Below, one piece after another: positions 2,231 to 63,830 of a stretch of 64,000 nt of DNA. How positions within the stretch are numbered: position 1 is the first letter of the stretch; each line of letters begins with the position of its first letter. The notes under the pieces were generated by a model. The model was not told the DNA's origin. It saw only the letters and a program-made list of their open reading frames with translations, and searched no databases. The position numbers and the translations under genes were made by a program. Origin of the DNA: Chiloscyllium plagiosum (lineage: Eukaryota); contig NC_057755.1 of NCBI RefSeq assembly GCF_004010195.1, positions 12,397,137 to 12,461,136 on the forward strand, written 5' to 3'.

Positions 2231-3694
2231 TGTCTGTATTTCTCATCAGTCAGGCAGACCAGCATGATTGTATCAAAGAGAAATTTGGTTTGAGTTCCTT
2301 GGGGGTCAACTTGCAGAACGGTAAAAAGGAAACAGTAAGTGTAATTTCCAAATGACGTTTGATAAAATGCCCCATACTAGATGCTCATGGTGTAAGGATG
2401 ATATATTAGCATGGAGAGAGGATAGGCTAATGAATACAACTCAGGGGGCTGGGATAGATGGGCCTCTTTCAGGCTAACAGTTTGTAACCTGTGAAGTGCC
2501 ACAGGATAGTGCATGGGCCACAATGATATACAATCTATCAACGGCTGGATAGTTGGGCAAAAACTTGGCAGATGGAATATTGTGTTGGGAAATCAATGTG
2601 AGCATGTCCACTTTGGTAAGAAGAATAAAGAGCCTCTGAATGTACTGAAAGAACTGGTGTCAGTGCTCCATGAATTGAAACCCCTATTAAACTTTGAATT
2701 TTTGCCCATGATTCAAGTAGTAATCTAAAGACTATTACATTGGAGGTTCTGTGTTTTGATTTAGCTCCTAACTGTTCAAAATCTTTCAGCAGAAGTCCCT
2801 TTCTAGTTCTATTAATGCCATTGCTATCAGCATGTCTGCCAATAACTAAATCCTTCCCCTCCCAATGCAAGTTCCTCTCCAGGCAAGAGGAGTTATCCCA
2901 GACCTTAGCACCGTCTAGATAACACAGCCTTCAGGACATGCTCACAACTACATGGGTCAGTATCTATCCTTCTAATTATATCGCTCTCTACCATCACTTT
3001 TTATTCTCCTTCCCCAACCTTAATTGGCTTCCTGTACCATGATGCCATTGTCAGTTTGCTGCGGGTCTCACTCTTGTCTTTCCAGGCTACAGACTCTAAA
3101 GTGCAAAGAGTTTTAATGATATGTGCAAAAGTCTCCTAAGTACCTATTCCATTTCCCCAAGGTCTCTAAATGGATATCTTGTAAATCACGATCTAGCTAT
3201 TTTTATGCTTCCAAATTCTACCTGAAATATCATGTTTAAAAACATTAATATGAGTAGTTTCATTACTATCAATATTAATTTCACACAGTTAAGTATCATC
3301 TGAAAGAATGAAGACCAATACAAAGTTATTATACTTCACTGGGGTAGTGCGCTGAAATCAAACCCTGCTAATTCCTGGAATCATCTCAAAAGTGAATGAT
3401 TTTACAAAGCATATAGAATTCCTCAATCAACTACCTTTAAAAGACAAGTTGACAGAAAGCATGGACTAGGTTTTAGTACTTAACAAGAAACATTGCTATT
3501 TATTACAGATAAATATATTTAACGGACAATTGTAAGCCACATTGAAATCTACTACTTAAAACTCTATTCCACTTACAAATCCCTCACCTCCACATGCACA
3601 TATCAGCATGCAGACAAAATAACACGGGAGTTAAGGATGAAGGGGAAGACTGGAAAAGCAGTCAGTTGAGTGATCCCTGTCTACAGAGACTTTC

Positions 3695-12807: not shown

Positions 12808-12904
12808 GGGAGCTGATAGCATGCTTGTGAGGAATCCTTGTCGGATTCACTATTTTCACACAATCGATACCAATATTTCATTATTTCTGTGTCAATTTTG
12901 TCAG

Positions 12905-13138
12905 TTACAATACAGGTCTAAAAAGTACAATGGACATGCTAAGGAATCTGGGACTGGAGCCCTCTGAAGAAGATGGCATTGCTGTTAGACAAATTTGCAA
13001 AATTGTCTCACTTCGTTCAGCCACACTCTGTTCAGCCACTCTAGCTGTTATTCTGCAACATATCAAAAATAATAAGAAAATGAAGCGGCTTCGAACAACA
13101 GTGGGTGTTACTGGGACACTGTACAGAAAAAATATGCA
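12905..13138 (+). CDS. HKDC1: Hexokinase (HKDC1-like), exon 9 equivalent
   Basis: ttttgtcag|T...ATGCA|gtaagt; 234 bp, phase-compatible; YNTGLKSTMDMLRNLGLEPSEEDGIAVRQICKIVSLRSA...NKKMKRLRTTVGVTGTLYRKNMQ. Confidence 0.9.
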
Positions 13139-13289
13139 GTAAGTAACATACATCCAAAATCTTTGTCTCAATGTTGCTTCATAGCAGTTTTACTTTTCTT
13201 GATCACTATGTTGCTGAAGGTGCCAATGCTAGCTGGGATATGGTTTCTTGGGGTACAGTTCCCTGAGTACAATACCATGGGATTAAGTC

Positions 13290-15196: not shown

Positions 15197-15504
15197 AGAA
15201 TGAATCCTAGGAATGCCTGGGGAATGCTCAACTGATGGTTTACATGTGACTCAATATACCATCGTGCAATGAGTTGTCGGAAACAGAATAACAAGGATAC
15301 AAAACACAGAAGAGAACAGGGCAGTACTGATCAGGCAGAAGGATGTGTACTAGTCACAAGAAGCTTGAACCCAGTAGTGAATGTTCTAATTGCAAATATG
15401 TTCACTTGTGCTGTGGTACAGATGCACGTCAAAGGTGTGTAGAGTTGATTAGTTAAAATGTTACTGAGGATTCTCCAAATAATAAGATCCAAAGAAAGCC
15501 AATA

Positions 15505-15826
15505 GCAAGACCAGAATCAGTTGCCTATCCCTAACTGCCTCTGAACTGACGGCTTGCTAGGACATTGCAGAGATATTTAAGAGTCACCCACATTGCTATG
15601 TGTCTGGAGTCACATGTAGGCCAGACAAGGATGCAGATTTTCTTCTCCGAAGGACATTAGTGAGTGAGATGGGCATACTTTTACAACAATCAATGATAGC
15701 TTCATTGTCATCACTACTGAGACTAGGTTCCTATTCCAGATTTATTAAAATGTGGTAGGATTTGAATCTGAGTTCCTAAAACATTCACCTGGCCCTCCAG
15801 ATCACACATCTACTAACATTAACACT
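15505..15826 (-). mobile_element. Deu-domain SINE (SacSINE1-like), old
   Basis: Reverse complement matches 60110..60410 (CCCATCT..CACTAATGTCCTT..GGCCTACATGTGACTCCAGA) followed by a LINE-type tail. Confidence 0.7.
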
Positions 15827-17559
15827 TTACTGTCAGGACAAGAAATGAAGGTCCCATTATGGTAAACCAGAATAGCTCCAGAGTTGACTGTGAGCAAGTG
15901 ATCTTAATTGATCTTTGAATTTAAAAGCTGGGTTATTTGCCCCTTCCAGCTCTCCCTACCCATTCCTGACTTTGATGGTTTGCATTGCCCGTAATGAGCT
16001 TCGCATGTAAATGTCTAAGTGGCGACATAAGTGACTTCCTGGTGATGATTAATAGTTTAAAAATTGAATGGTGATTTGGTCATGGAAAAGCAGTTCAGTT
16101 GTGAACGATAAACTTTTGGAAAGAAAAAAAGAACAATAAAAAAGTGTTGGGTTTCCTGCATTCATGCCTTGGAGATGGAGCACGTAATGTACGTAATATT
16201 CTTGATACCTTTAGAGAAAGATAAGCACCGTAGGGTGTGGAATGCTTTATTTTCCCTTCCAATTCCGTTTTGATTTACCTCCTTCCTGCTTTCTCTACCT
16301 TCCCCTCACATTTTGATGGTCAGCATTGCCCTGAACAATATTTACATTTGAATATCCACAGTGTTTTAATGTGGTGTTTAATAGATAGAGAAAAAAAGGT
16401 CACGTTGCACGGTGATGGGAGAAACGGTACTTACCCCTCCCCAACCCCCCCAATGCTTCTCTTCCCCACCCATATCCCTGCCCCCAACCCTTCTCACCTT
16501 TGATTGTTTAAATCACCCTTAATGGGCTTTTCACATAAATGAATCAACTGGAAATGCAGGTGATTTACTGGTAGTATTTAATAGGAACAAAAGTACCATG
16601 CTGAAGTGGCTAAAAACGTGTGCAGCAGCACTTCTGGATATATTAAAAAAGAGTTGAGTTCCATCATCTACATTTCCCTTAATGGGCATTTTGCGTAAAT
16701 TGATCAATTGAAGAAAAAGAATGATTTACTGGTGGTGGCTAATGGCTAAATGTAAGAGCACTTCTAAATATAAAAAGGATGATGAATTCTCTGGGGGTGG
16801 GTGTTGTGACTCACAATACCCAGGTTCACATCCCACCTTGCACTAGATACATCTGAACAGGTTGATGTAAGATAAAAAAAAAGCTGGCACACACAATATC
16901 CACCAATGCTCTCAATATCTTTAGGGAGAGATAGGCACCGTAGGGGATACAGTGCGTTATCTCCTCTTCCAACTCCATTTTGATTCAGTGCCCTCCCTCT
17001 CTCCCTCACTACCAGGATGGGATTTGCATGTCAATTTGTAATTGAATCAGAAACATGAGTGGTTTTGTGGTGGAGGATGAGGGAGAAAGGTAAGATGAGT
17101 GGTCTGACGGTGGGAGAAAGAAGTGTTCAGTGGTGCATAAAAGCACTTCTGGAAATAAAGAGGACAAAGGCATTTCTGTGCAGAAGCCTGTGGCCCTGAG
17201 TCTTGGATTGAAGAGGAATTTGACAGTGAGTAGCAGGAAGTCCAAAACATAAACCACAGGGAACAGAAAGCTGTGTATAATTATTGCCCACATGAATCCC
17301 ACAACAAGTATAGGAATAGTCACCCTCTCAGGAAAGGCAACAGAAATTCTCCCAGTGATTCCTCACCACGGGTTTGAGGTGCATATAAAATTGGTGCGAT
17401 GGTTGTGAGAAGCATATTGGAATGGGTGTCCAGTACAACACAACCAAGAAAAAGTAAGGAACTACTACATAACCCCACCTCCAAGTTTTGGATGAAGTCC
17501 CATTTGTGTGTGAAGCACATTGAGATATCGACTGACCCAGCAAACGGTGACTGTGATAA

Positions 17560-30229: not shown

Positions 30230-31806
30230 AACAAAAACTTCCAGCTCGGCGAACAGAACCACAACAACGAGCACCTGAGCTACAAATCTTCGCACAAACT
30301 TTGGCTGTTCATGCTAAATTCCTCTGAGAGACCATCACCCCCTACATTTTCCAAAACAGCATACTTGTTTGAGATGGGGATAGCCACAGAACACTCCTGC
30401 CTACCCCTCCTACCTTTCCTGGAGGTAACCCATCTACCTGACTGTATCTGTGATTTTTCTCCCTTCCTATAATTGCCATTCATCACACCCCCTAGCTCCT
30501 GTAAATTCCTCATTGCCTCTAACTGCCGCTGCAACTGATCCATGTGATCTGATAGATTCACAACCAAAGACACTTGCTGCAGACATAATCATCAGTAACA
30601 TGGAAACTCTTTCCAAATTCCCACATACAACAGGAGGAGCATAGCACTCTACTGAAGGCCATCTTTGCTCCTTCACAATCTACAGACCTAGAAAATAGCA
30701 CCATATTTTTGCTTTAGATACAGTGCTCCAGGCTAACTTAGTACTTATGGTTTTTTTTTAATTTAATCAAGAGACAGATTTCAATAAAACATATAATCAA
30801 GAAAAAACCCACTTTACAGCAAGATTACATGTTAAAAACTGTGCGTTTATCTGTTCCTGTTCTGTGAACTGTCCCACACAAGTTGCTCCAAGGTCAGCTC
30901 AGCCATGCATTCATCTGCCCTATTCTCCTATTCCTGTACCCACTGGCACTTGGCACTGATTGTGATCCAGAGATTACAACCTTTGAAATTTTAATTTCCT
31001 TTTCATTTTAAACTTTTTTTTGTTTTTTAATCTACTACCTAACTTCCAGATTTCTTCTATATCATTGGTAATAATGTGTGCTATAACTTCTGTCTTATCA
31101 CCCTCCCCTTTCAGGTTGCCCTGCAGCCAAGCATAATGATACTTTGACTCTGGATTCAGGGAGACAACACAATATCCTAGACTCTTGGCTGTATCCATGG
31201 AAACACCTGTCTGTTCTCCTGCCAATCACATTCTTGCTTTCTTTTTCCTCCCTTCATACATAGTCAGACTGCTTATGGTGCCAGAAACTTGGCTCTGACT
31301 ACACTCCTTTCAGAAACCAGCACTCTTATCAGCTTTCAAAATGGAAAACCAATCTGGATAAGCATACCCCAGAGGACTCCTGCATGACCTCTTCGACTGG
31401 TCACCCATTCCCATATTTTCTTCAGTCCCTTGGAGTACAGTGTGACCAAATCTCTAAACCTGATCACAGACTCATGGATGTGCCATAGTCTCCATTCGCC
31501 GAACTAGATCTGAAACCTTTCTACAGTTGGGAGCACTTGCTTTGCAGATCTCTCTGTACTAAAGCATTCTGTGGTCTCACATTTAGATAATATTATATTA
31601 TTTTAATGTTTATTGCAAATTGGAAGTTTACGTTTCCTCAAATTATATATTACATTGCTTATCCTGCCTGTCTCAATTGCAGTCAACAGAGTGTCTATAG
31701 CTGATGAATCATTGAGGAATAAATGTACTTTCTTAAATGCTCAAAATGAAATTTTCAGGCCCCGTACTTTAACATTGGGTTGTAACACTTTGACACTCTA
31801 TGACAG

Positions 31807-32111
31807 GTATGCAAAGACTTTCCATAAGCTAGTTCGAAGCCTGCTTACTGACTGTGATGTGCGATTCCAGCTGGCTGAGGATGGCACTGGGAAAGGGGCT
31901 GCCATGGTGACTGCAGTAGCTCAGAGGCTCGTTTACCAACGTAATTACATAGACAAGACCCTCGCACCATTCAGACTCAATCGAGACCAACTGCTCAACA
32001 TAATGGACAAGATGAGATTGGATATGGAACGTGGATTAAAACAAGAGACCCAAAGCAGTGCCACAGTCAAAATGCTTCCCACCTACGTTTGTAAACTTCC
32101 CACAGGAAATG
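31807..32111 (+). CDS. HKDC1: Hexokinase (HKDC1-like), exon 10 equivalent (end of N-half, linker helix, start of C-half)
   Basis: gacag|G...AATG|gtatgt; 305 bp; YAKTFHKLVRSLLTDCDVRFQLAEDGTGKGAAMVTAVAQRL...ATVKMLPTYVCKLPTGN. Confidence 0.92.
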
Positions 32112-33943
32112 GTATGTCACTACCAGACTTTTAATCTCCAGGTCAATAGTGCAAAGTTACACCACCACCATGTTAGTGATTTAACTAAACAAAGGTTTGT
32201 TGTGCTTCTTCTGCTTACCTGGTCTCAGCTATCAGCATTCCATCTCTTGATGAGGTGCTTGAACCTTCAAGATCCACTCCACAGGTTCAATAATGAACAT
32301 GAATGATGCATTATAATGAGACAGTGCTTTTGTGAGACAGTACTGTGTCAGGGCAGTGTTGCAGAGAGGCAGTGCTGTACCTGAGGCACTGCAGTACAGG
32401 TACCGAACTTATTAATAGGCAACTTCTGCAATCTGTTTAAACATAATTGGTGAGGCCACTGCTAGAACATTCTGTTCAGTTCTGGCCTCCCGACTATAAG
32501 AAGGATGTTGTTAAACTTGAAAGGGTTTAGAAAGGATTTACAAGGATGTTGTAAATATTCCAAAAGCCATCTTTAGCTCGCAACTCCAAATTCACAGCTC
32601 CAAACCAAAATTGATAAAAGAATAAAATAAAAACAATGAAACTTTAGCAAGGACTCTAAAACACTGTTAATTGTGGTGTTAATCATATTGTCACCACTAC
32701 CAGGTGGCTTGGCTTTAGTGAACCAGATATTCTCCAAAGAGTGGTTACAGCAGTGTAAATTGAAGTTGTGCATTGGGATTCATGTGGAATCCCTAATACA
32801 GCTGACTCCAAGGACTGGGAAATAGAAACTTCCAATAGTCAAGTTCCACATGTTTGGGACTCTCCAGAAAAGCCCCTTATCGGGAAAAAATTTGGAGGTT
32901 CTGACTCACTTAAATTTAGTGGCTACCTCGGAAATGTTAGACTATATAAAACTAATTGAACAATCGTAACTATTGAACTGAATTCCAACACACGACCAAC
33001 CTCCCTTCATCCCTCCCTAACCTTTTGGCATCTTCTGACCCAAACCTACGCAGACAGATCCAATGCACACCCCCACAGACCTGACCGTGACAAAATCCTC
33101 TCAACCCCACCCAGCTGGTTTCAACACCTTACCCCACCTCTCCCATGACCATCCCTTGGACCTTATCTGAACAAACAATCCTTCTGCTACACAAAAGCAT
33201 GAATACACTTACCAACCATCATGGACTTCTCATCCACTGGCACCCTACTCTCTTAGACATCAGGTACTCTAGTCCTCCTGCTCCCTCCCATAGCTTATTG
33301 ATATTTCTAATCAACCTGTTTGGAGCATTATGACAAACCCCTGGAACAGGTTGGAATGGATCCCAGGCTTCCTGGCCCAGAGGCAGGGATATTACGAGAA
33401 CCTTAGTCAAATATTAAAGTTTGATTTTTGTGTATTTTTAAAGACCCAGGCCTATTGAATACAAGACTAACTTGTTTTAGATACATTTCAATAGACCACA
33501 GGAGCAGATGGGACCTGAGCCGGGGAATCCTAGCCCAAAAGTAAAGTCACTTACTTACCTTTATATACTTATTGTTCCTCAGTCACTGGCAAAGTTGCTT
33601 TCAGACATTTAAACAATTTAACTGCTGAATGTCTTTTAAAATGTTGAGTGTGTGTTGTTCTACCAAAGTGCTCTTGTGCTGAGTCAATTTCCCCCTGGTT
33701 ATCTCTAATGGATGCTGTTGGGACAAGCCAGACCTGGTATCTTAGCCAGAAAAATTGGCCAGTAAAAGTGTAGTTTTAAAGAGGATTGCCATCAGCCAAA
33801 TCCATTGTAACATAATTGAAATATCTGGACAAATGTGTTTATTTCAATATTTTAATAAGTATTGTGTGATTGGCACATTGTTGTCAAACACATCATGATC
33901 TACTCCAAGAAAAAATCAAACCATTACCCCTTGATATTTAAGA

Positions 33944-40770: not shown

Positions 40771-43700
40771 AAGAAGAAAAATGAACAAAGAAAATTGCAT
40801 TGCAGGAACAGGCCCTTTGGCCTTCCTAGCCTGCGCTGATCCAGATCCTCTATCTAAATCTGACGCCTATTTTCCAAGGATCTGTATCCCTCTGCTCCCT
40901 GCCCATTCATGTATCTGTTTAGACATTACGTTATTGTGCCCACCTCTACCACCTCCATTGGCAACGCATTCCAGGTACCTACCACCCTCTGCGTAAAGAA
41001 TTTTACACGCATATCTCCCTTAAACGTTTCTCCTCTCACCCTGAACTCATGACCCTCATAACTGAGTCCCCCACTCTGGGAAAAAGCTTCTTGTTATCCA
41101 CACTGTCTATACCTCTCATGATTTTGTAGACCCCCCCCAACTCCATCTTTCTAATGAAAACAATCTTAATCTACTCAACCTCTCTTCATAGCTAGTGCCC
41201 TCCATACCAGGCAACATCCCAGTAAACCTCCTCTCCAAAGCATCCACATCGTTTTGTAATGTGGTGACCAGAACTGTACGTAGCAATCCAAATGTCATCG
41301 AACCAAAGTCCTATACAACTGCAATGTGACCTACCAACTCTTGTACTCAATGCCCTGTCTGATGAAGGAAGGTATGCCTTCTTGACCACCCTATCGACCT
41401 GCATTGCCACCTTCAGGATACAATGGACCTGAACACCCAGATATCTCTGTACATCAATTTTCCCAGGACTTTTCCATCTACCATATTATTCAATTTTGAA
41501 CTGGATCTTCCAAAATGCATCATCTGACATTTGCCTGGATTGAATTCCATCTGCCATTTCTCTGCCCAACTCTTGAATCTATACAGATTCTGCTATATTT
41601 TCTGGCAGTCCATTCACTATCTGCTCCTCCACCAATCTTAGCATCATCTGCAAACTTGTTAATCAGACCACCTATACCTTCAATCAGATCATTTTTGTAT
41701 ATCACAAACAACAGTGGTCCCAACACAAATCTTGTGGAAAACCATTGGTCACAGTTCTCCATTTTGAGAAATTCCCTTCCACTGCTACTCTCTGTCTCCA
41801 GTTGCCCAGCCAGTTCTCTATCCATCTAGCTAGTACACCCTCGACCCCATGCGATTTTACTTTCTCCATTAGCCTACCATGGGGAATCTTATCAAATGCC
41901 TTACTGTAGTCAATGTATGTGAGATCTACAGCCCTTCCCTCATCAATCAACTTTGTCACTTCCTCAAAGAATTCTATTAAGTTGATAAGACATGACCTTC
42001 CCTGCATAAAACCATGTTGTCTGTCATTGATAAGCCCAATTTCTTCCAAACGGAAATAGATCCTATCCCTCAGTACCTTCTCCAGCAGCTTCCCTACCAC
42101 TGACATCAGGCTCACCGGTCAATAATTACCTGGATTATTTCTGCTACCCTTCTTAAGCAGGGGAAAACATTCGCAATTCTTCAGTCCTCTGGGATCTCAC
42201 CCGTGTTCAAGGATGCTGCAGATATCTGTTAAGGCCCCTTTCCTTTCCTTCAGTAACCTGGGATAGATCCCATTCAGACCTGGGGACTTGTCCACCTTAT
42301 TGCCTTTTAGAATACCCAACCCTTCCTCCCTCCTTATGCTGACTTGACTTAGAGTAATCAAACATCTGTCCTTAACCTCAACATATCATGTCCCTCTCCT
42401 CGGTAAATACCGATGCAAAGTACTCATTAAGAATCTCACCCATTTTCTCTGACTGCACGCATCACTTTCCTCCTTTGTCCTGAGTGAGATAACTCTTTCT
42501 CTAGTTACCCTCTTGCTCCTTAGATACGAATAAAAGGCTTTGGGATTTTCTTAAACCTATTTACTAAAGATGTTTCATGATCCCTTTTAGCCCTCTTAAT
42601 TCCTCACTTCAGACTGGTCTTACTTTCCCAATATTCTTCCAAAACTTTATTTGTCTTCAGTCACCTCAACCATATATATGCTTCCTTTTCCCTCTTAGCT
42701 AGTATCACAATTTCACCTGTCATCCATGATTCCCTAATCTTGCCATTTCTATCCCCCATTTTTGCGTGGACCTTTCTGTCCTACACTCTAATCAACTTGA
42801 CTTTAAAAGCCTCCCACACATCAAATGTAGATTTACCTTCAAACAGCTGCTCCCAATCTACATTCCCCAGCTCCTGCTGAATTTTGCTGTAGTTGGCCTT
42901 CCTCCAATTTAGACCCTTCCTTTAGGACCTCTCTCGTCTTTGTCCATTAGTATTCCAAAACATATGGAACTGTGATCACTATTCCCAAAGTAATCCCCTA
43001 CTGAAACTTCAACCACCTGTGTGGGCTCATTCCCCAACACCAGGTCCAGTATGGCCCCTTCCCAAGTTGGACTATTTTCATATTGCTCTAGAAAACTCTC
43101 CTGGATATTCCTTACAAATTCTGCTCCATCTAAACCTCTAACACTAAGTGAATCCCAGTCAATGTTGGGAAAATTAAATTCTCCCATCACCACTCCCTGT
43201 TGCTTCTACATCTTTCCATAATCTTTCTACATATTTGTTCCTCTATCTCACACTTGCTGTTGGGAGGCCTGTATTACAACCCCAACATTGTTACCGCACT
43301 CTTCCTATTTCTGAGCTATGCCCATGTTGCCTCACAACTTGAATCCTCCATAGTGCCCTCCTTTAGCACAGCTCTGATATCCTCTCTGACCAGTAATGCA
43401 ACTCTTCTGCCCCTTTTACCTCCCTCTCTATCCTGCCTGAAGCATCAATATTCTGGGATATTTAGTTGCCAATCATGCCCTTCCCTCAACCAAGTCTCAG
43501 TAATAGCAATAACATAATACACCCAGGCACTAATCCAAGCCCTAAGTTCATCTGCCTTGCCTACTACGCTGCTTATATTAAAAAAGCACCTCAGACCACC
43601 TGTCCCTTTGTGTTCATCATCTACTCCCTGATATCTCTTCCCCTTCGTCATGCTGACTTCATTATCTATTTCTTTATCGGCTTTAGATACTACCTCCCTA

Positions 43701-45031
43701 CAGTCCACTTACTACTCATTTGGTTCCCACTGCTGCCACATTAGTTTAAACCCTCCCCAACAATGTTAGCAGAAGCACCCCCAGATCATTGGTTCTAGTC
43801 TGGCCAGGTGTAGACTGTCGAATTTGTAATAGTCCCACCTCCCCCAGAATCGGTCCTAATGTCCCAAAAATCTGAATCCCATCTTTCAAGCCATGCATTT
43901 GTCCTGCCTATTCTTTCATTTCTGCTCTGACTAGCATGTGACACTGGTAGCAATCCTGTGATTAGTATCTTTGAGATCCCACATTTTAGCTTAGCTCCGA
44001 ACTCCCTAAATTCTGCTTGTGGGACTTCATTCTGTTTTTTACCTATATCATTGGTGCCTATATGCACCACGACAACTGGCTGTTCGCCCTCTCCCTTCAG
44101 AATGTTCTGCAGCCGATTTGAGACATCCTTGACCCATGCACCTGGGAGTCTTGTTTTTGACCTATCTACTCCCCTTACAATTGAATCCCCTATGACCAAG
44201 TCCTTCCACTCTTTTCCCACCCTTATGTACAGCAGAGCCAGCCACATAGCCATGAACCTGGCTACTGCTGCCTTCCCCTGGTGAGCCATCTCACCCAACA
44301 CTATCCAAAACGGTAAACCTGTTTTGGAGGGAGATGACTGCAAGGGACACCTGCAATATCTTCCTGCTCTTTCTCTGCCTTTTGATCACCCATTCCCTTT
44401 CTCCATCAGCAATCCTAATCGTGGTGTGACGTGCTATCCACGACCACCTCAGCACCATGGACGCTCAAAAATGAGACCATCCGCAGCTCCAGAGCCGTCA
44501 TGCGGTCTAACAAGAGCTGCAGCTGGACACACTTACTGCACGTGAAGGAGTCAGGGACATCAGCCACGTCCCTGAGCTTCCACAAGAGTAGCATTACACA
44601 GGTCTGAGATCTCCTGCCACTTTTAATCTTAAGCTTACCTTAGTCCAAACATAATATCAAATAATAGATAAATGAAAGGAAAGAAAAGAAAAAAATGTAC
44701 CAATCACATGATAAAAAAGGAATAGAAAACCCTTACCTTTACTGACACAACAGAGTCTTTTTTTTGGTTGGAGGATGAGAACGGGTGGGAGATACTACAC
44801 ATGTACTGTCTCAGGTTTAGCAGCTGCCCAAATATATCAGTTCACTCACCTTCCCAAAGCGACTGCTCTCACTCAGCTCCTCGCTCTCATCACTCCTGCT
44901 CCCACTGCTGCTGCAGCAAATGGAGGCTGTTAACTCTCGAGGTAAGTCCTTTTAAAGGGAAATCTACCTTCCCAGCAGCCCCCTGGTCCTCACTCTCACC
45001 GCTGCTGCTTGCTGCTGCTGCTGCTGCTGCT
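40771..45031 (-). mobile_element. Near full-length CR1 LINE inserted in gypsy gag, 8-bp TSD
   Basis: VIGDSIVRG/VHIGTNDIG esterase, IAITETWL and GNSDH endonuclease, FADD RT; GAAATTGG at 40763..40770 and 45032..45039. Confidence 0.9.
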
Positions 45032-56270: not shown

Positions 56271-57269
56271 CACTTCCTACCCACAGAATATATGAGAGTG
56301 TTATGTGTGTGTCACTCCCAGCTCATGCAGTGGTACCTGGTCTCCAATCGTCTGAGCATTGGACAAAGATCCTGCTGTGCAAGGACCGTGTGATAGTTGA
56401 TGTGTAACGGCCTTCACTGCAGGAAGGGAAAGTGGATTTTGGATGCTTTTGGCCAAACCCCTTTTCAGCCTGCAGGAATTAGTTCCTGTTCTGCTTCAGC
56501 AGAAGAAGCTGTTTATTAGTGGTACCACCTTTCCAAGGGAAAAATTGGCATGGGGCAGATAAAGTCAAGGATGCAAATGCATGACTTGGTGTTGGAGAAA
56601 TGTTTATGGTGCACTGGCACCTGGATTGGAATAGGTATGAGCTGTTATGGTAGGATGAACATCATTTGAACTATATTGGGAGCAGTGTCCTGACAAATCA
56701 AATACTGGAGCTACAGAGAGGCCTTTAAGATTCCATAAATTAAATAAAGTGAGGCATCTATTTAAGTAATGGTACTCTGGGACAGGAAGGGACAGCGTGT
56801 GCAAACATTAAAAGAAGTCAAATAGGGTTAAAGAGAAAAAAAAGTGGCAAAAAGGTAAATTTGATGGCTTTTTACTTAAATGTCCATCATAGATGTAACA
56901 AAATAAATTAATCAGCTACACAGAAGTGGTATGATGGTGGTATGATTTTATGGCCATTATAATGGTATGATTACAAGGAGATAAAAACTGGAAACTAAAT
57001 GTTCATGAGTGTGCGACATTTCCAAATGACAGACAGGAATCAAACGTTGGGGTGACTTTGTTAGTATAAGATGGAGTAAGTACAATAGTAAAAACTGAGC
57101 TTGGATCAGAAGAAGTAAAATCCATGTGGATAGAGGTAAAAAAAGAAATCACATGGGGAATCACTGGTGGAGTAGTTATAAACCTCTTGACAGGAGCTAT
57201 ACTGTAGGACAGAGAAAAGCAATCTGGAGATAATTAATGGATGCAAAACAGTCAGTACATTAATTATGA

Positions 57270-58135
57270 CCAAAAACAGAAATTGTTGGAAAAACTCGTG
57301 GGCGGCACGGTGGCACAGTGGTTAGCACTGCTGCCTCACAGCGCAGAGACCCGGGTTCAATTCCCGCCTCAGGCGACTGACTGTGTGGAGTTTACACATT
57401 CTCCCCGTGTCTGCGTGGGTTTCCTCCGGGTGCTCCGGTTTCCTCCCACAGTCCAAAGATGTGCAGGTCAGGTGAATTGGCCATGTTAAATTGTCCGTAG
57501 TATTAGGTAAGGGGTAAATGTAGGGGTATGGGTGGGTTGCGCTTCAGTGGGTCGGTGTGGACTTGTTGGGCCGAAGGGCCTGTTTCCACACTGTAATGTA
57601 ATCTAATCTAAACTCAGCAGATCTGGCAGCATTTGTGTGGAGAATTCAGAGTTAACATTTCAGGTCAAGTGACCCATCCTCAGAAATGATGGCAGCTGGG
57701 AATAGAGCCCAAAGGTAGAAAGAAGAGCAGTTTAACAGACAAAGAGTGGATAGGATCTGGCGAGGAGGGTGACTAGCTATTATTGGGGACTGTTCATGGC
57801 TAACAAGGCCTGGTGTGTGGGAGTTCGAGCAATGACATGGGAGAGCTCAAGCCCTAAAATTATTGAACTCAATGTTGAGTCCAGAAGGCTGCAGGTCTCC
57901 AAGTGAAAAATGAGGTGCTGTTCTTCCAGGTGGCACTGAGCTTCACTGGAGCACTGAGGCAAGCCTGAGACAGAGATGTTGGCCAGGAAGCAGGGTGGTG
58001 TGAAGTGGCAGACAACTGAGAGCTTAGAGTTTTTTTTGTGGACATAACATAGGCGTTCTATGAAGCAGTCACCCAGTCTATATTTCAATTCTCTAATGTT
58101 AAGGAGACAACATTGTGACCAGTGAATGCAGTAAA
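57270..58135 (-). mobile_element. Penelope-like remnant (GIY-YIG C-terminal part and pLTR), with nested HE1
   Basis: SVSGLPQCSSEAQCHLEEQHLIFHL. Confidence 0.65.
57298..57609 (+). mobile_element. Young HE1 SINE, TSD AAACTC
   Basis: Full consensus; AAACTC at 57292..57297 and 57610..57615. Confidence 0.92.
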
Positions 58136-58389: not shown

Positions 58390-59522
58390 GTTGAATAAGA
58401 GAATGGTCAAAGAAAGAGTAGGGCCGATCAGGTATAGCATAAGGAACTTGTGTGTGGAGTCTGAGGAGATAGGGGAAGCCCTAAATGAGTTTTTTGCTTC
58501 TGTCTTTACGAAACAAACAAACTTTGTAGTGAATGAAAACTTTGAAGAGCAGGTGTGAATGCTGGAATGGATAGAGATAGAGGAAGCTGATGTGCTGAAC
58601 ATGATGTGCTGGCCAGGCCCAGACCAGATTTGTCCTCGGCTGCTTTGGGAAACGAGAAATGCAATTGCTTCGCCACTTGTGAAGATTTTTGCATCCTTGC
58701 TCTCCACTGGAGTCATACCTGAGGACTGGAGCGAGGCAAATGTAATTCCTCTCTTCAAGAAAGGAAATAGGAAAATCCCCGGAAATTACAGACCAATAAG
58801 TCTCATGTCTGTCGTCTGCAAGATGTTAGAAAGGATTCTGAGGGATAGGATTTATGACCATCTGGAAGAGCATGGCTTGATTAAATGCAGTCAACACGGC
58901 TTTACGAGGGGCAGGTCATGCCTCACAAACCTTATCGAGTTCTTTGAGGATATGTCTAGAAAAGTTGATGAGGGTCGAGCTGTGGATGTGGTGTATATGG
59001 GGACTTCAGCAAAGCATTTGATAAGGTTCCCCATGGTAGGCTCATTCAGAAGGTCAGGAGGAATGGGATACAGGGGAACTTAGTTGTCTGGATACAGAAT
59101 TGGCTGGCTAACAGAAGACAGCGAGTGGTAGTAGAAGGAAAATATTCTGCCTGGAAGCCAGTGGTGAGAGGTGTCCCACAGGGCTCTGTCCCTGGGCCTC
59201 TACTGTTTGTAATTTTTATTAATGACTTGGATGAGGGGATTGAAGGATGAGTCAGCAAGTTTGCAGATGACACAAAGGTTGGAGTGTCGTTGACAGTATA
59301 GAGGGCTGTTGTAGGCTGCAGCGGGACATTGACAGGATGCAGAGATGGGCTGAGAGGTGGCAGAAGCAGTTGTGGAAGCAAGGTCATTGGGGACATTTAA
59401 GAGACTACTGGATATGCATATGGTCACAGAAATTTGAGGGTGCGTACATGAGGATCAATGGTCGGCACAACATTGTGGGCTGAAGGGCCTGTTCTGTGCT
59501 GTACTGTTCTATGTTCTATGTT
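58390..59522 (+). mobile_element. CR1 (RT region) with an internal deletion joining it to the 3' tip at about 59365
   Basis: NYRPISLMSV, QHGFTRGRSCLTNL, GVPQGS, FADD; (TTCTATG)n tail. Confidence 0.88.
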
Positions 59523-59869: not shown

Positions 59870-60090
59870 AGTCACAGGTCATAGAGATATACAGCATGGA
59901 AACAGACCCTTCAGTCCAACTCGTCCATCCTGACCAGATATCCCAACCTAATCTAGCCCCATTTTCCAGCAGTTGGCCCGTATCCCAATAAATCCTTCCC
60001 ATTCACATACCCATCCAGATGCATTTTAAATGTTGTAATTGTACCAGCCTCCACCATTTCCTCTGGTAGCTCATTCCATACACACACCAC
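59870..60090 (-). mobile_element. CR1 3' tip
   Basis: Matches 25620..25840. Confidence 0.85.
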
Positions 60091-60095
60091 AAACA

Positions 60096-63000
60096 GGGAG
60101 GCGATGGCCTAGTAGTATTTTTGCTCGACTATTAATCCAGAAATCCAGAATTATGTTCTGAGGACTTGGGTTCAAATCCTGCCACAGCAGATGGTGGAAT
60201 TTGAATTCAATAAAAAAAATCTGGAATTAAGAGTCGACTGATGATCATGAAATCATTGTCAATTGTCAGAAAACCCATCTGGTTCACTAATGTCCTTTAG
60301 TGGAGGAAATCTGCCATCCTTACCTGGTCTGGCCTACATGCAACTCCAGAGCCACAGCAATGTGGTTGACTCCTAACTACCCTCTGAAATGGCCTAGTAA
60401 GGCACTCAGTTGTATCAATCGATAGAAAGTCACAACAAAACAATGAAACCGGACAGACCACCTGGCATCAGCCTTGGAACTCGAAAAGACAACGGCAAAA
60501 ACACAAACAGCCCTGTTGCCCATGTAAAGTCCTCCTTACCAACATCGGGAGGCTAGTGCCAAAATTGGGAGAGCTGTCTCACAGACTAGTCAAGGAACAG
60601 CCTGCCATAGTCATTCTTACGGAATCGTACCTTACAGATAACACCCCAGACACCACCATTACCATCCCTGGATATGTCTTATCCTACCGACAGGACAGAC
60701 CCAGCAGAGGTGGTGGCACAGTGGTATGTAGTCGGGAGGGAGTTGCCCTGGGAGTCCTTGACATTGACTCTGGATCCTATGAAGTCTCATGGCTTCAAGT
60801 TAAAAGTGGACAAGAAAACCTTACTGGTTACCACGTACTGTCCTCCTTTGGCAGATGAATCAGTCCTCCTCCGTGTTGAACAATTCTTGGAGGAAGGACT
60901 GAGGGTGGCAAGGGTGCAAAATGTCCTCTGGATGGGGATTTCAATGTCCCACCACCAAGAGGGGCTCGGCAGCAGGTCGATTCCTATAGGTTATAATTGC
61001 TAGATTGGGTCTGCAGCAGGTGGTGAAGGATCCAACAAGAGGATAAAAACATACTTGACCTCATCCTTACTAATCTGCCAGCTGCAGAAGCATCTGTCCA
61101 TACAGTATAGGTAAAAGCGACCACTGCACTGTCCTTGTGGAGATGAAGTCCTGTCTTCACATTGAGAATAATCTCCATCGTGTTGTGTGGCACTATCACG
61201 GTGGTAAATGGGACAGACTTCAAACCGATCTAGCAGCTCAGGACTGGGTATCCATGAGGCACCGTGGGCCATCAACAGCAGCAGAACTGTACTCCAGCAC
61301 AATCTACAGCCTCATGGCCTGGCATATCCCCCACTCAACCATTACCATTAAGCCAGGGGATTAACCAGGAGCAACATCAGGCATACCTAAAAATGAGGTG
61401 TCAACCTGGTGAAGCTACCAAACAGGACTACTTGTGTAGTAAGCAGCATACACAGCAAGTGATAAACAAAGCTAAGCGATTCCACAATCAATGGATCAGA
61501 TCTAAGCTCTACAGTCCTTCCACATCCAGTTGTGAGTGTTGGTGGACAATTGGTGGCACGGTGGCTCAGTGGTTAGCACTGCTGCCTCACAGCACCAGAG
61601 ATGCGGGTTCAATTCCTGCCTCAGGTGACTGACTGTGTGGAGTTTGCATGTTCTCCCCGTGTCTGCGTGGGTTTCCTCCGGGTGCTCCGGTTTCCTCCCA
61701 CAGTCCAAAGATGTGCAGGTCAGGTGAATTGGCCATGCTAAATTGCCCGTAGTGTTAGGTAAGGTGTAAATGTAGGGGCATGGGTGGGTTGCGCTTTGGC
61801 GGGGCGGTATGGACTTGTTGGGCTGGAAGGGCCTGTTTCCACACTGTAATGTAATCTAATCTAATCTAAACAACTCACTGGAGGAGGAGGCTCCACAAAT
61901 ATTCCCCTCCTCAATGACGGAGGAGCCATCAGTGCAAAAGATAAGGCTGATGAATTTGCAACAACCTTCAGTCAGAAGTACTGAGTGGATGATCCATCTC
62001 GGGCTCCTCCAGTGGTCCCCAGTTTCACAGATACCAGTCTCCATCCAATTCAATTCACTCCACATGATATCAAGAAGCGACTGTGGGCACTGGATACTGC
62101 AAAGGCAATAGGCCCGAAGACGTGTGTGCCAGAACGTGCCCCTCCCTTAGCCAAGCTCTTCCAGTACAGTTACAGCACTGGCATCTACCCAACAATGTGG
62201 AAAACTACCCAGGCATGTCCTGTACACAAAAAGCAGGACCAATCCAACCGAGCCAATTACCGCCCAATCAGTCTACTCTTTACCATCAGTAAAGTAATAT
62301 AAGGGGTCATCAACAATGATATCAAACAGCACCTGCTCAGCAATAACCTGCTCAGTGATGCCCAGTTTGGGTTTCACCAAGATCACTCAGCTCCTGATCT
62401 CATTACAGCCTTGGTTCAAACATGGACAAAACAGCTGAATTCCAGAGGGGAGGTGAGAGTGACAGCCCTTGACATCAAGGCCATAATCAACTGAGTATGG
62501 CATCAGGGAGCCCTGGCAAAACTGGAATTAGTGGCTATCACGAGGCAAATACTTCACTGGTTAGAATTATACCTGGAACAAAGGAAGGTGGTTGTGGTTG
62601 TGGAGGGTCAGTCATCTCAGCTCCAGGACACCTCTGCAGGAGTCCCTCAGGGTAGAGTCCTAGACCCAACAATCTTCAGCTGCTTCATCAACGACCTTCT
62701 CTCTGTCATAAGGCCAGAGGTCAGAATGTTCGCTGATGATTGCACCATTCGTGGTTTAGCACCATTTGTGGTTCTTCAGATACTGAAGCAGTCCGTGCTC
62801 AAATGTAACAAGATCTGGACAATATCCAGGCTTGGGCCACAAGTGGCAAGTAACATTCGTGCCACACAAATACCAGACAATGAAAAGCACTCTAGCCACT
62901 GTCCCTTGACATTCAACTGTATTACCATCACTGAATCCCCCACTGTCAACATCCTTGGGGTTACCATTGACCAGAAACTCAACTGGACTCACCACATAAA

Positions 63001-63303
63001 CACAGTGACTACAAGAGCAAGTCAGAGACTAGGGATACTGTGGCGAGTAACTCACCTCCTGACACCCCAAAGTCTATCCACCATCTACAAAGCACAAGTC
63101 AAGAATGTGATGGAAACTCCCTACTTGCCTGGATGGGTGCAGCTCCAACAACACTCAAGAAACTTGAAACCATCCAGAACAAAGCAACCTCCTTGACTGG
63201 CACCATATCTACAAATATTCAATTCCTCCACCACCGGCGCTCAGTAGCAGCAGTAGATGCACTGCAGAAATTTACCAACGATCCTTAGACAGCACCTTCC
63301 AAA
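60096..63303 (+). mobile_element. Single-ORF LINE (APE endonuclease + RT, CR1/L2-group-like) with a tRNA-derived and Deu-like 5' UTR; decayed and 3'-interrupted
   Basis: A-box TGGCCTAGTAG 60105, B-box GGTTCAAATCC 60169; ORF from about 60443: LTNI..IVILTESYL, RGGG, GDFN, LDLILTN, SDH, NYRPISLL, QFGF, GVPQG, FADD. Confidence 0.85.
61553..61868 (+). mobile_element. Young HE1 SINE nested in the LINE
   Basis: Full consensus with (TAATC)n tail; splits the LINE sequence WWTI|KQLTG. Confidence 0.92.
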
Positions 63304-63830
63304 TGGCAGAGTTGATTACATACCTTGCGTCAGTTTTATGGTACAACACACTAATAGCATTCCAAAAATACGAAAGAGAGGAGGAGATAAACAAAAACTT
63401 GCATAAGAGAAAACCTACTGGGAAACTGGTGGGGCTAAAGGCTGATTGGTCTCCTGGAAATGATAGGTTGCATCCTTGGACATTTAAGGAAGTAGGTACA
63501 GAGGTAATAAGTGCGCTGGTAGTAACATTCCAAGAATCATTAGATTCTGTGAAAGCCCCAGAGGATTGGAGAACAGCAAATTAAACTGCCTTCTTAAAAA
63601 AAGGAAAGAGGCAAAAACAAAATGTGTCATTATGGAATTCTTGGTCACAGATGGTTGTAAAGATTGTATTGTTAAGTATATTGAGGACTGAGATAAATAG
63701 ATTTTTACTTAGTAAGGGAACCAAGGGTTATTGGAACAAGGCACAGAAGTGGAAATGATCAACTATGATCTCACTGAATGGCAGAGCAGACTTGATAGAC
63801 TCAAATACCTGCTTCTGTTCCTCTCTCTTA
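63304..63830 (+). mobile_element. Old CR1 fragments
   Basis: LKADWSPGNDRLHP..PEDWRTAN. Confidence 0.65.

Follow-up and report, generated by a model that had tools for sequence, protein, structure and literature searches.

The window analysed here is a 64,000-nt stretch of the Chiloscyllium plagiosum genome (RefSeq assembly GCF_004010195.1, contig NC_057755.1, positions 12,397,137 to 12,461,136, forward strand), and its main subject is a repeat at 60096-63303. Coordinates are window positions on the + strand, and the genome searched is the window's own 3.56-Gb assembly. The repeat is a single decayed copy of a family of ~3.3-kb retrotransposons without long terminal repeats (non-LTR elements), i.e., long interspersed nuclear elements (LINEs), in which one open reading frame (ORF) encodes both an endonuclease (EN) and a reverse transcriptase (RT); the family is large, abundant and extinct. 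A sequence-only reading of this DNA had proposed a protein-coding LINE that RNA polymerase III (Pol III) can transcribe, headed by sequences typical of a short interspersed nuclear element (SINE). The copy is organized as follows.

60096-60195, + strand: tRNA-like head, with which the element begins at its 5' end; contains the A box (60105-60115), the B box (60169-60179) and a private T5 run (60118-60122)
60196-60237, + strand: linker holding an A8 run (60212-60219)
60238-60412, + strand: Deu-like conserved SINE body block, common to a second SINE in the window
60413-60442, + strand: remaining 5' untranslated region (UTR), present too in SINE-type deletion derivatives
60443-60556, + strand: short frame of 37 codons from the sole nearby ATG; overlaps the EN-RT frame but in a different phase
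60388-61551, + strand: EN-RT frame, part 1 (endonuclease and linker), decayed, without an in-frame ATG
61552-61866, + strand: unrelated tRNA-type SINE with a (TAATC)n tail, nested here and foreign to the family; skipped in the 15 other copies that span this point
61867-63303, + strand: EN-RT frame, part 2 (reverse transcriptase with RVT_1, and C-terminal region), decayed; the copy ends here

The earlier description of 60096-63303 as one element is right as to its start and its unity, but it overlooked the SINE nested at 61552-61866 and the loss of ~280 nt from the 3' end. Since all 15 family copies that span the insertion point skip 61552-61866, the nested SINE is private to this locus. Other copies extend ~280 nt past 63303 to a common family 3' end, ...CCCACAAATGAAT, followed by one to seven T and a short A run, which shows that the window copy is 3'-truncated; the missing ~280-nt tail was not found between 63303 and the window end. 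Directly after the break, 63304-63600 (+) holds a fragment resembling the start of a CR1-type RT region (frame 63168-63584), and this fragment may be an insertion or rearrangement that cost the copy its last ~280 nt.

Promoter-like boxes in the head

The head of the window copy contains an A-box-like motif, TGGCCTAGTAG, at 60105-60115 and a B-box-like motif, GGTTCAAATCC, at 60169-60179, exactly where they had first been placed. A majority sequence built from 21 copies (3295 nt, T = 20.6%) has TGGCCTAGTGG at 10-20 and GGTTCGAATCC at 74-84, with tRNA-like spacing between them. The textbook consensus motifs are TRGCNNAGTGG for the A box and GGTTCGANNCC for the B box, and both putative boxes of the majority fit them perfectly. 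Full-length LINE copies and SINE copies begin at the same nucleotide, 9 nt before the A box, which on such internal promoters is the position of the Pol III start site. The head of the window copy also contains the T5 run at 60118-60122, which the sequence-only reading had put down to later decay. This run needs a T at majority column 25 as well as a CpG transition at column 27, and because the column-25 T occurs in only 2 of 37 copies, the run is indeed private decay of the window copy.

The head, the Deu-like block and the ORF form one unit

The junction between head and ORF was followed across the genome in four sets of loci, each representing the best-scoring candidates only. A query covering 60096-60520 gave 40 scored matches, most of them near full query length, out of 12,121 first-look candidates, and 20 of the 40 were taken with long flanks. 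All 20 start at 60092-60108 and align through the junction to at least 60640. Sixteen further loci were picked by head and Deu-like block alone: eight are LINE-type with a contiguous junction, six are SINE-type (L032, L033, L036, L040, L041 and L043), L035 is SINE-like with a shorter 5' part (its 5' match ends near 305) and L031 consists of the 5' part only. In L029, also picked by head and Deu-like block, reference positions 319-693 are absent. The fairest test of the junction comes from loci picked with ORF sequence only (query 60450-60950). In 31 of 31 such loci, Deu and head sequence lies upstream and is continuous with the ORF; the 5' end falls at position 1-8 in nine of them and is scattered over 33-295 in the other 22, among which four show split alignments (L059, L061, L067 and L072), two of these (L061 and L067) being rearranged. 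Four of four lower-identity copies (61-64% at the protein level) carry the contiguous head-Deu-ORF junction as well.

Taken together, 63 other loci, spread over many contigs, have a contiguous junction, among them 35 of the 35 chosen through their ORF sequence, as the sequence-only reading had expected of a true family. The scattered 5' ends are an ordinary LINE 5'-truncation series that reaches into the head, and the copies combine a common 3' end with variable 5' truncation, as is diagnostic of LINEs. The head, the Deu-like block and the ORF are thus one unit and a feature of the family. Neither an ORF1 nor an alternative 5' end was seen in the 35 ORF-picked loci (the best-scoring of 7,756 and 17,660 first-look candidates), in agreement with the ORF1-less structure first proposed. 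No clear target-site duplications were found in 11 copies with both ends, several of whose 3' ends matched only in part. Several independent, internally deleted copies that keep head and tail were found at L026, L017, L018 and L038, with positions 1-799 joined to 2997-3192 in L026; the family readily gives rise to shorter riders.

An abundant ~213-bp repeat at 59878-60090 (+) ends 5 nt upstream of the head, and the same arrangement is present in L025 (G000:C11:3232500-3240020), where the alignment is unbroken over 59878-61551 at 80%. At least nine of the 20 long loci contain this repeat at other places. Its position next to the head could be fortuitous, or it could reflect a preferred landing site or 5' transduction of the repeat together with the LINE.

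T runs are scarce on the sense strand

Pol III terminates at runs of T, and the sequence-only reading had found by eye no run of four or more T (T4+; other bases and lengths are written likewise) on the + strand from 60123 to 63303. Counting gives the same result: there are 0 T4+ runs as against 18 A4+, 8 C4+ and 8 G4+, at a T content of 23.1%, and simple arithmetic from these counts leads one to expect ~7. The frequent A runs and the T4+ runs of neighbouring LINEs (at 58490, 58686 and 59213) noted earlier are likewise present. The T4+-free sense strand characteristic of a type 2 Pol III unit extends over the entire 3295-nt majority, where T3+ and T4+ runs number 6 and 0, compared with 56 and 15 for A, 42 and 11 for C, and 41 and 8 for G. 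In decayed copies, 51.4 kb of sequence contains 26 T4+ runs, i.e., 0.51 per kb, versus 5.21 per kb for A4+.

The ORF was then set against two null models with 2000 shuffles each, a permutation of codon order and a synonymous-codon shuffle that keeps the protein. Four T3+ runs are seen, whereas 13.1 are expected under the permutation and 12.9 under the synonymous shuffle, and none of the 2000 shuffles of either kind is as low. A, C and G runs match expectation under both nulls. The signal is therefore a three-fold shortage of T3 runs beyond codon usage and protein sequence; it is strong, and it is the T3+ class that carries the statistical weight.

Eleven other LINE sequences, which are CR1-like, L1-like or more distant, served as controls. 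In six LINE ORFs from the same genome (partly masked with N), T3+ and T4+ runs reach or exceed the codon-permutation expectation. Among five other LINE fragments in the window, none has a comparable sense-strand deficit, the largest being 3 T4+ runs versus 4.1 expected; one of these fragments, at 297 nt, is too short to weigh. Headless relatives of the family were sought in the sampled loci and in the window: the window matches all lie at or below 45% identity and belong to other families, and the apparent low-identity headless matches in the loci turned out to be copies of the same family in raw orientation. None of the three observations that the sequence-only reading had named as fatal to itself, namely a junction unique to this locus, a normal number of T4+ runs in the consensus, or an ORF1 or RNA polymerase II (Pol II) promoter further upstream, was made.

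A co-resident SINE shares both ends of the LINE

The SINE that resides alongside the LINE consists of LINE positions 1 to ~374 joined to ~3177-3295, i.e., the last ~120 nt, and is thus the LINE minus nearly its whole ORF. Only these SINE-type deletion derivatives, ~470-490 bp long, are short and non-coding as a SINE should be; the full element, at 3.3 kb and with a frame of ~966 codons, is neither. SINE and LINE copies show no fixed differences, and their majorities differ at four columns, two of which reflect CpG decay and two near-tied counts. Eight SINE-type or 5'-only copies diverge by 6.5-11%, and 23 of 24 long LINE copies by 7-10%, with L044 at 14%. These near-identical majorities and equal divergences argue that LINE and SINE were amplified together from near-identical masters.

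The 3' ends are alike in the two forms. In 18 family copies (L013-L043), ...AAATGAAT is followed by 1-7 T and then 4-8 A. A run of at least four T directly before the A run occurs in 7 of the 18 intact 3' ends and is variable in length; by type, it is found in 4 of 7 SINE-type copies and 3 of 11 LINE-type or deleted copies. Such variable terminal oligo-T is the pattern that heterogeneous Pol III termination would be expected to leave.

The Deu-like block recurs in a second, otherwise different SINE of the window (15544-15713; 75% over 178 nt). This second Deu-type SINE, at 15440-15860 (-), shares the 140-320 block and a B-box-like stretch with the head region of the LINE, and its 3' part differs. 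This sharing, together with contig depth in other organisms (see below), indirectly supports the name Deu-like for the block.

Reading frame, protein and clade

The long frame of the majority opens at 294, within the Deu block, and ends in a stop at 3192-3194, ~966 codons in all; at the single place where the first majority showed an internal stop, 15 of the 25 copies of a larger sample have a sense codon and 8 have the stop. This open majority frame shows a coding-competent founder. A 786-aa frame that appeared to be present in L022 proved to consist of N letters. In the window copy, Pfam RVT_1 matches 62495-63196 (E 9.8e-08, 32.4 bits versus a cut-off of 29.6), and no Pfam endonuclease match was obtained on the decayed piece 60388-60858. 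Residues 48-956 of the majority protein align at 30% identity with the sole match of the protein search, P0001, which has both PF03372 and PF00078. The nearest ORF in hand is that of L080, a CR1-like element of the same genome (30.7% over 489 aa), and three other LINE ORFs lie at ~25%. On these comparisons the family is probably a CR1/L2-like single-ORF LINE, its link to L2-2_CM resting on the published relation of SINE tails. The length of ~3.3 kb, the 37-codon overlapping frame and the ~100-nt 3' UTR resemble the RTE clade, whose elements have about this length, a very short overlapping first ORF and a very short 3' UTR; the published link of the SINE tail points to L2.

The sequence-only reading had let the EN-RT frame begin at about 60443, which does not hold: the ATG at 60443 (majority 349) is out of EN-RT phase and opens only a 37-codon frame that ends at a TAG at 60554-60556. 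The spacing between this ATG and the EN domain equals that of the majority in 18 of 26 copies, so the out-of-phase ATG is the state of the family and not a local frameshift. Translation might accordingly begin by a frame shift or at a non-AUG or internal start, or the protein might not be translated from this RNA.

Age, selection and other organisms

Long copies differ from the majority by 7-10% (14% in one case), and the distance between any two of them is near the sum of what separates each from it (median ratio 0.9); the sampled copies represent one star-like burst. Shared variants give no support for purifying selection on the ORF: in raw form they show a synonymous excess of 36% versus 25%, but the excess is gone after a split into transitions and transversions (0.377 versus 0.362).

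Among the runs listed for this stretch, none is recorded as RNA. Contigs of uncertain kind from runs of four other organisms were placed on the element at 80% likeness. All 30 bins are covered, and the Deu-ORF junction is bridged by records 10 and 11 of X6 and record 26 of X9, indicating that the element is not confined to this genome. Contig depth in the four organisms peaks over 60292-60389 at tens to hundreds times that of most ORF bins, and the commonest loose end, after ~60386, runs directly into tail sequence. Elsewhere, the abundant form is a shorter classical SINE, in which Deu is joined directly to the tail.

Candidate transcription by Pol III and alternative explanations

From the observed architecture, the family-wide junction, the ends shared with the SINE and the T-run depletion, we infer how the element may have been transcribed, terminated and translated. 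The 5' end of the family has the make-up of the promoter module of a tRNA-derived Deu SINE, an A/B-box head followed by a Deu block, and master copies would have been transcribed from this head by Pol III through the whole 3.3 kb. Such read-through would be possible because the sense strand is without a T4+ terminator and purged even of T3 runs. Transcription would end at or just past the 3' end, at the variable T(1-7) before the short A run, and the resulting RNA would serve as the retrotransposition template; the protein could come from translation of the same RNA or be made elsewhere. That Pol III initiated at the head and read the whole element, with the T-run purge as a trace of selection for read-through, is an account that we hold tentatively and rate a little short of an even chance. 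Its most ambitious version, an autonomous Pol III-gene retrotransposon that adopted a SINE promoter, purged its coding strand of oligo-T and had its uncapped transcript both copied and translated, with translation starting either through a frame shift out of the overlapping 37-codon frame or through internal entry close to the Deu block, seems to us unlikely; it would give the deeply conserved Deu domain its first proposed function, as part of a LINE leader.

Several points weigh against transcription by Pol III. The tRNA likeness of the head is weak: the Rfam tRNA model gave no match on the head in the window and 17 loci (not all with a complete head), ARAGORN found no tRNA in the window, and on the majority head it returned an 89-nt long-arm cloverleaf only at the relaxed setting -ps90. 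Pol III is not known to make natural RNAs of kilobase length, and its products are uncapped. The A run that follows the terminal T run belongs to the copies, so that simple termination at that point is insufficient. On the coding side, the EN-RT frame is open from 60388 with no ATG between the upstream stop and the endonuclease, and one burst together with no synonymous excess means that long selection on a head-bearing coding master is not demonstrable. The lack of an ORF1 is not odd in itself, since single-ORF L2-type LINEs exist. The T4+ deficit claimed at the outset is true as a count but lies within the range of chance once codons are considered: the ORF has 0 T4+ runs versus 2.1 expected under the codon-order permutation (0.11 of shuffles have zero) and 2.2 under the synonymous shuffle (0.07). 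Finally, the controls are CR1-like, L1-like or more distant and not close headless relatives of the L2-2_CM type, so T-run poverty could be a trait of the clade. The first proposal, a Pol III-transcribable protein-coding LINE, therefore survives in part: the family junction, the absence of any ORF1 seen and the T4+-free majority stand, whereas the T4+ argument taken alone is at chance level and the ATG it named is out of frame.

The main competing explanation is a Pol II LINE that borrowed a SINE as its 5' UTR, with Pol II starting at the head or within the Deu/UTR region and T-run poverty being a compositional or clade trait. The chance-level absence of T4+ runs, the head's failure to score as a tRNA with Rfam and the lack of a close headless relative among the control LINEs all suit it, and replacement of LINE 5' ends is documented in plant RTEs (bioRxiv 10.1101/2022.11.04.512097). 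Yet it is not evident why an element transcribed by Pol II should shun T3 across codon junctions while runs of A, C and G occur at normal frequency. The depletion is also missing from eleven other LINE sequences of the genome, and LINE and SINE copies have in common not only intact A and B boxes but also their first nucleotide. We consider this explanation possible, though on the improbable side.

Another explanation makes the element a long non-autonomous rider. One template switch would have joined a 5'-truncated LINE cDNA, its native start lost, to a SINE RNA, and the chimera would then have moved in trans via the shared 3' tail, its ORF an untranslated passenger; such a rider is likewise Pol III-driven, being transcribed like a SINE. 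The EN-RT frame without an in-frame ATG, the single star-like burst with no synonymous excess in shared variants, and the spread of SINE-type and internally deleted copies (L026, L017, L018 and L038) alongside all speak for it, and the Deu (~60386)-to-tail form, commonest in other organisms, fits a SINE older than the chimera. However, a headless partner is absent from 35 of 35 ORF-picked loci (best-scoring candidates only), the majority frame is open over ~966 codons, and a one-off chimera leaves the three-fold T3 depletion beyond codon usage unexplained. We regard this origin, too, as doubtful. Chance juxtaposition, in which a 5'-truncated LINE at this one locus had a SINE land immediately upstream of it, has next to no probability and is ruled out by the contiguous junction in 63 other loci, where truncations begin at varied positions in the head and the Deu block.

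Comparison with known elements

Eel UnaL2-type L2 LINEs encode EN and RT in a single ORF, lack an ORF1 and share a stringent 3' tail with SINEs; UnaL2 is not known to have a SINE head at its 5' end. Replacement of the 5' UTR in mammalian L1 is a further case of LINE 5' switching besides that of plant elements. UnaL2 is named as the partner of UnaSINE in one report (PMC3747384). SacSINE1 and LmeSINE1, Deu SINEs of shark and coelacanth, are described as having a tRNA-derived head with A and B boxes and a Deu body, and their tail is one that L2-2_CM or CR1-4_DR-like LINEs also carry (PMC5499810, PMC3747384). By description, the 5' ~350 nt and last ~120 nt of our element have the same layout; the partner LINE described there has nothing but its tail in common with the SINE, whereas in our family the head and the Deu block are borne by the coding LINE.

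In his 2018 and 2020 papers, Kojima reports that SINE bodies, joined to a small-RNA head, can derive from bipartite remnants of LINE 5' and 3' ends, with RTE and Vingi as the only 5' contributors; he assumes transcription by Pol II for the LINEs and their bipartite derivatives and offers no origin for Deu (PMC5786205, PMC7245038). As in those bipartite SINEs, the SINE-type copies here are exactly LINE 5' plus LINE 3'; unlike the headless autonomous LINEs of those papers, the head sits here on a full-length L2/CR1-like LINE. The family also resembles plant SolRTE, in which a conserved body and 3' end are combined with an exchangeable 5' promoter region (bioRxiv 10.1101/2022.11.04.512097). The 5' ends acquired by SolRTE are not small-RNA-derived Pol III modules, and the text of that report contains neither 'tRNA' nor 'polymerase III'. 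As in T+ SINEs such as B2, in which a Pol III terminator precedes an A tail, a T run stands directly before the terminal A run, here as at least four T and then A4-8 in 7 of 18 copies; T+ SINEs are L1-mobilised and mammalian and have AATAAA signals, whereas here only the pattern is present, at the end of an L2-like tail (PMC12101331).

The literature searched contains no account of a LINE that bears a tRNA-derived head or forms a Pol III unit; one may exist in Repbase or Dfam. The architecture is unusual and, as far as searched, undescribed.

Other features of the window

The (TAATC)n-tailed tRNA-type SINE, which differs from the SINEs above, occurs in two copies, at 61552-61866 (+) and ~57238-57489 (+), and both encode the same GTVAQWLALLPHS... 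string in one frame. In the nested copy, Rfam's tRNA model matches 61561-61620 weakly (20.5 bits, E 0.74). This SINE may be of the elasmobranch HE1/V-SINE type.

Hexokinase exons are found at 12831-13139 (+) and 31607-32131 (+), with Pfam matches to Hexokinase_2 (E 7.3e-13) and Hexokinase_1 (E 9.1e-11), and at least the first half of the window is predicted to lie within a + strand hexokinase gene. Another LINE, at 41705-44385 (-), has an RT (E 3.5e-13) and an endonuclease piece (Exo_endo_phos_2, E 1.5e-07); its upstream frame has a weak GDSL-lipase/esterase match (28.2 bits, under the cut-off of 32.9), reminiscent of the esterase-type ORF1 that some CR1/L2 elements have.

Significance

LINEs are usually seen as Pol II genes, and SINEs as Pol III parasites whose only loan from the LINE is its tail. 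In this family, the coding element has both ends in common with its SINE, the putative Pol III promoter among them, and its coding strand looks as if shaped to let Pol III read through. Repeat annotation can be misled by such elements, since it would divide them into a SINE and a truncated LINE. Even if Pol II was the polymerase, the family shows clearly that a LINE took over a SINE module for its 5' end. If Pol III transcription were confirmed, the divide between LINE and SINE would be blurred, and the family would provide a natural long protein-coding Pol III transcript as well as a concrete route for the origin of SINEs or the renewal of LINE promoters. It would, moreover, tie the ancient Deu domain to a LINE leader.

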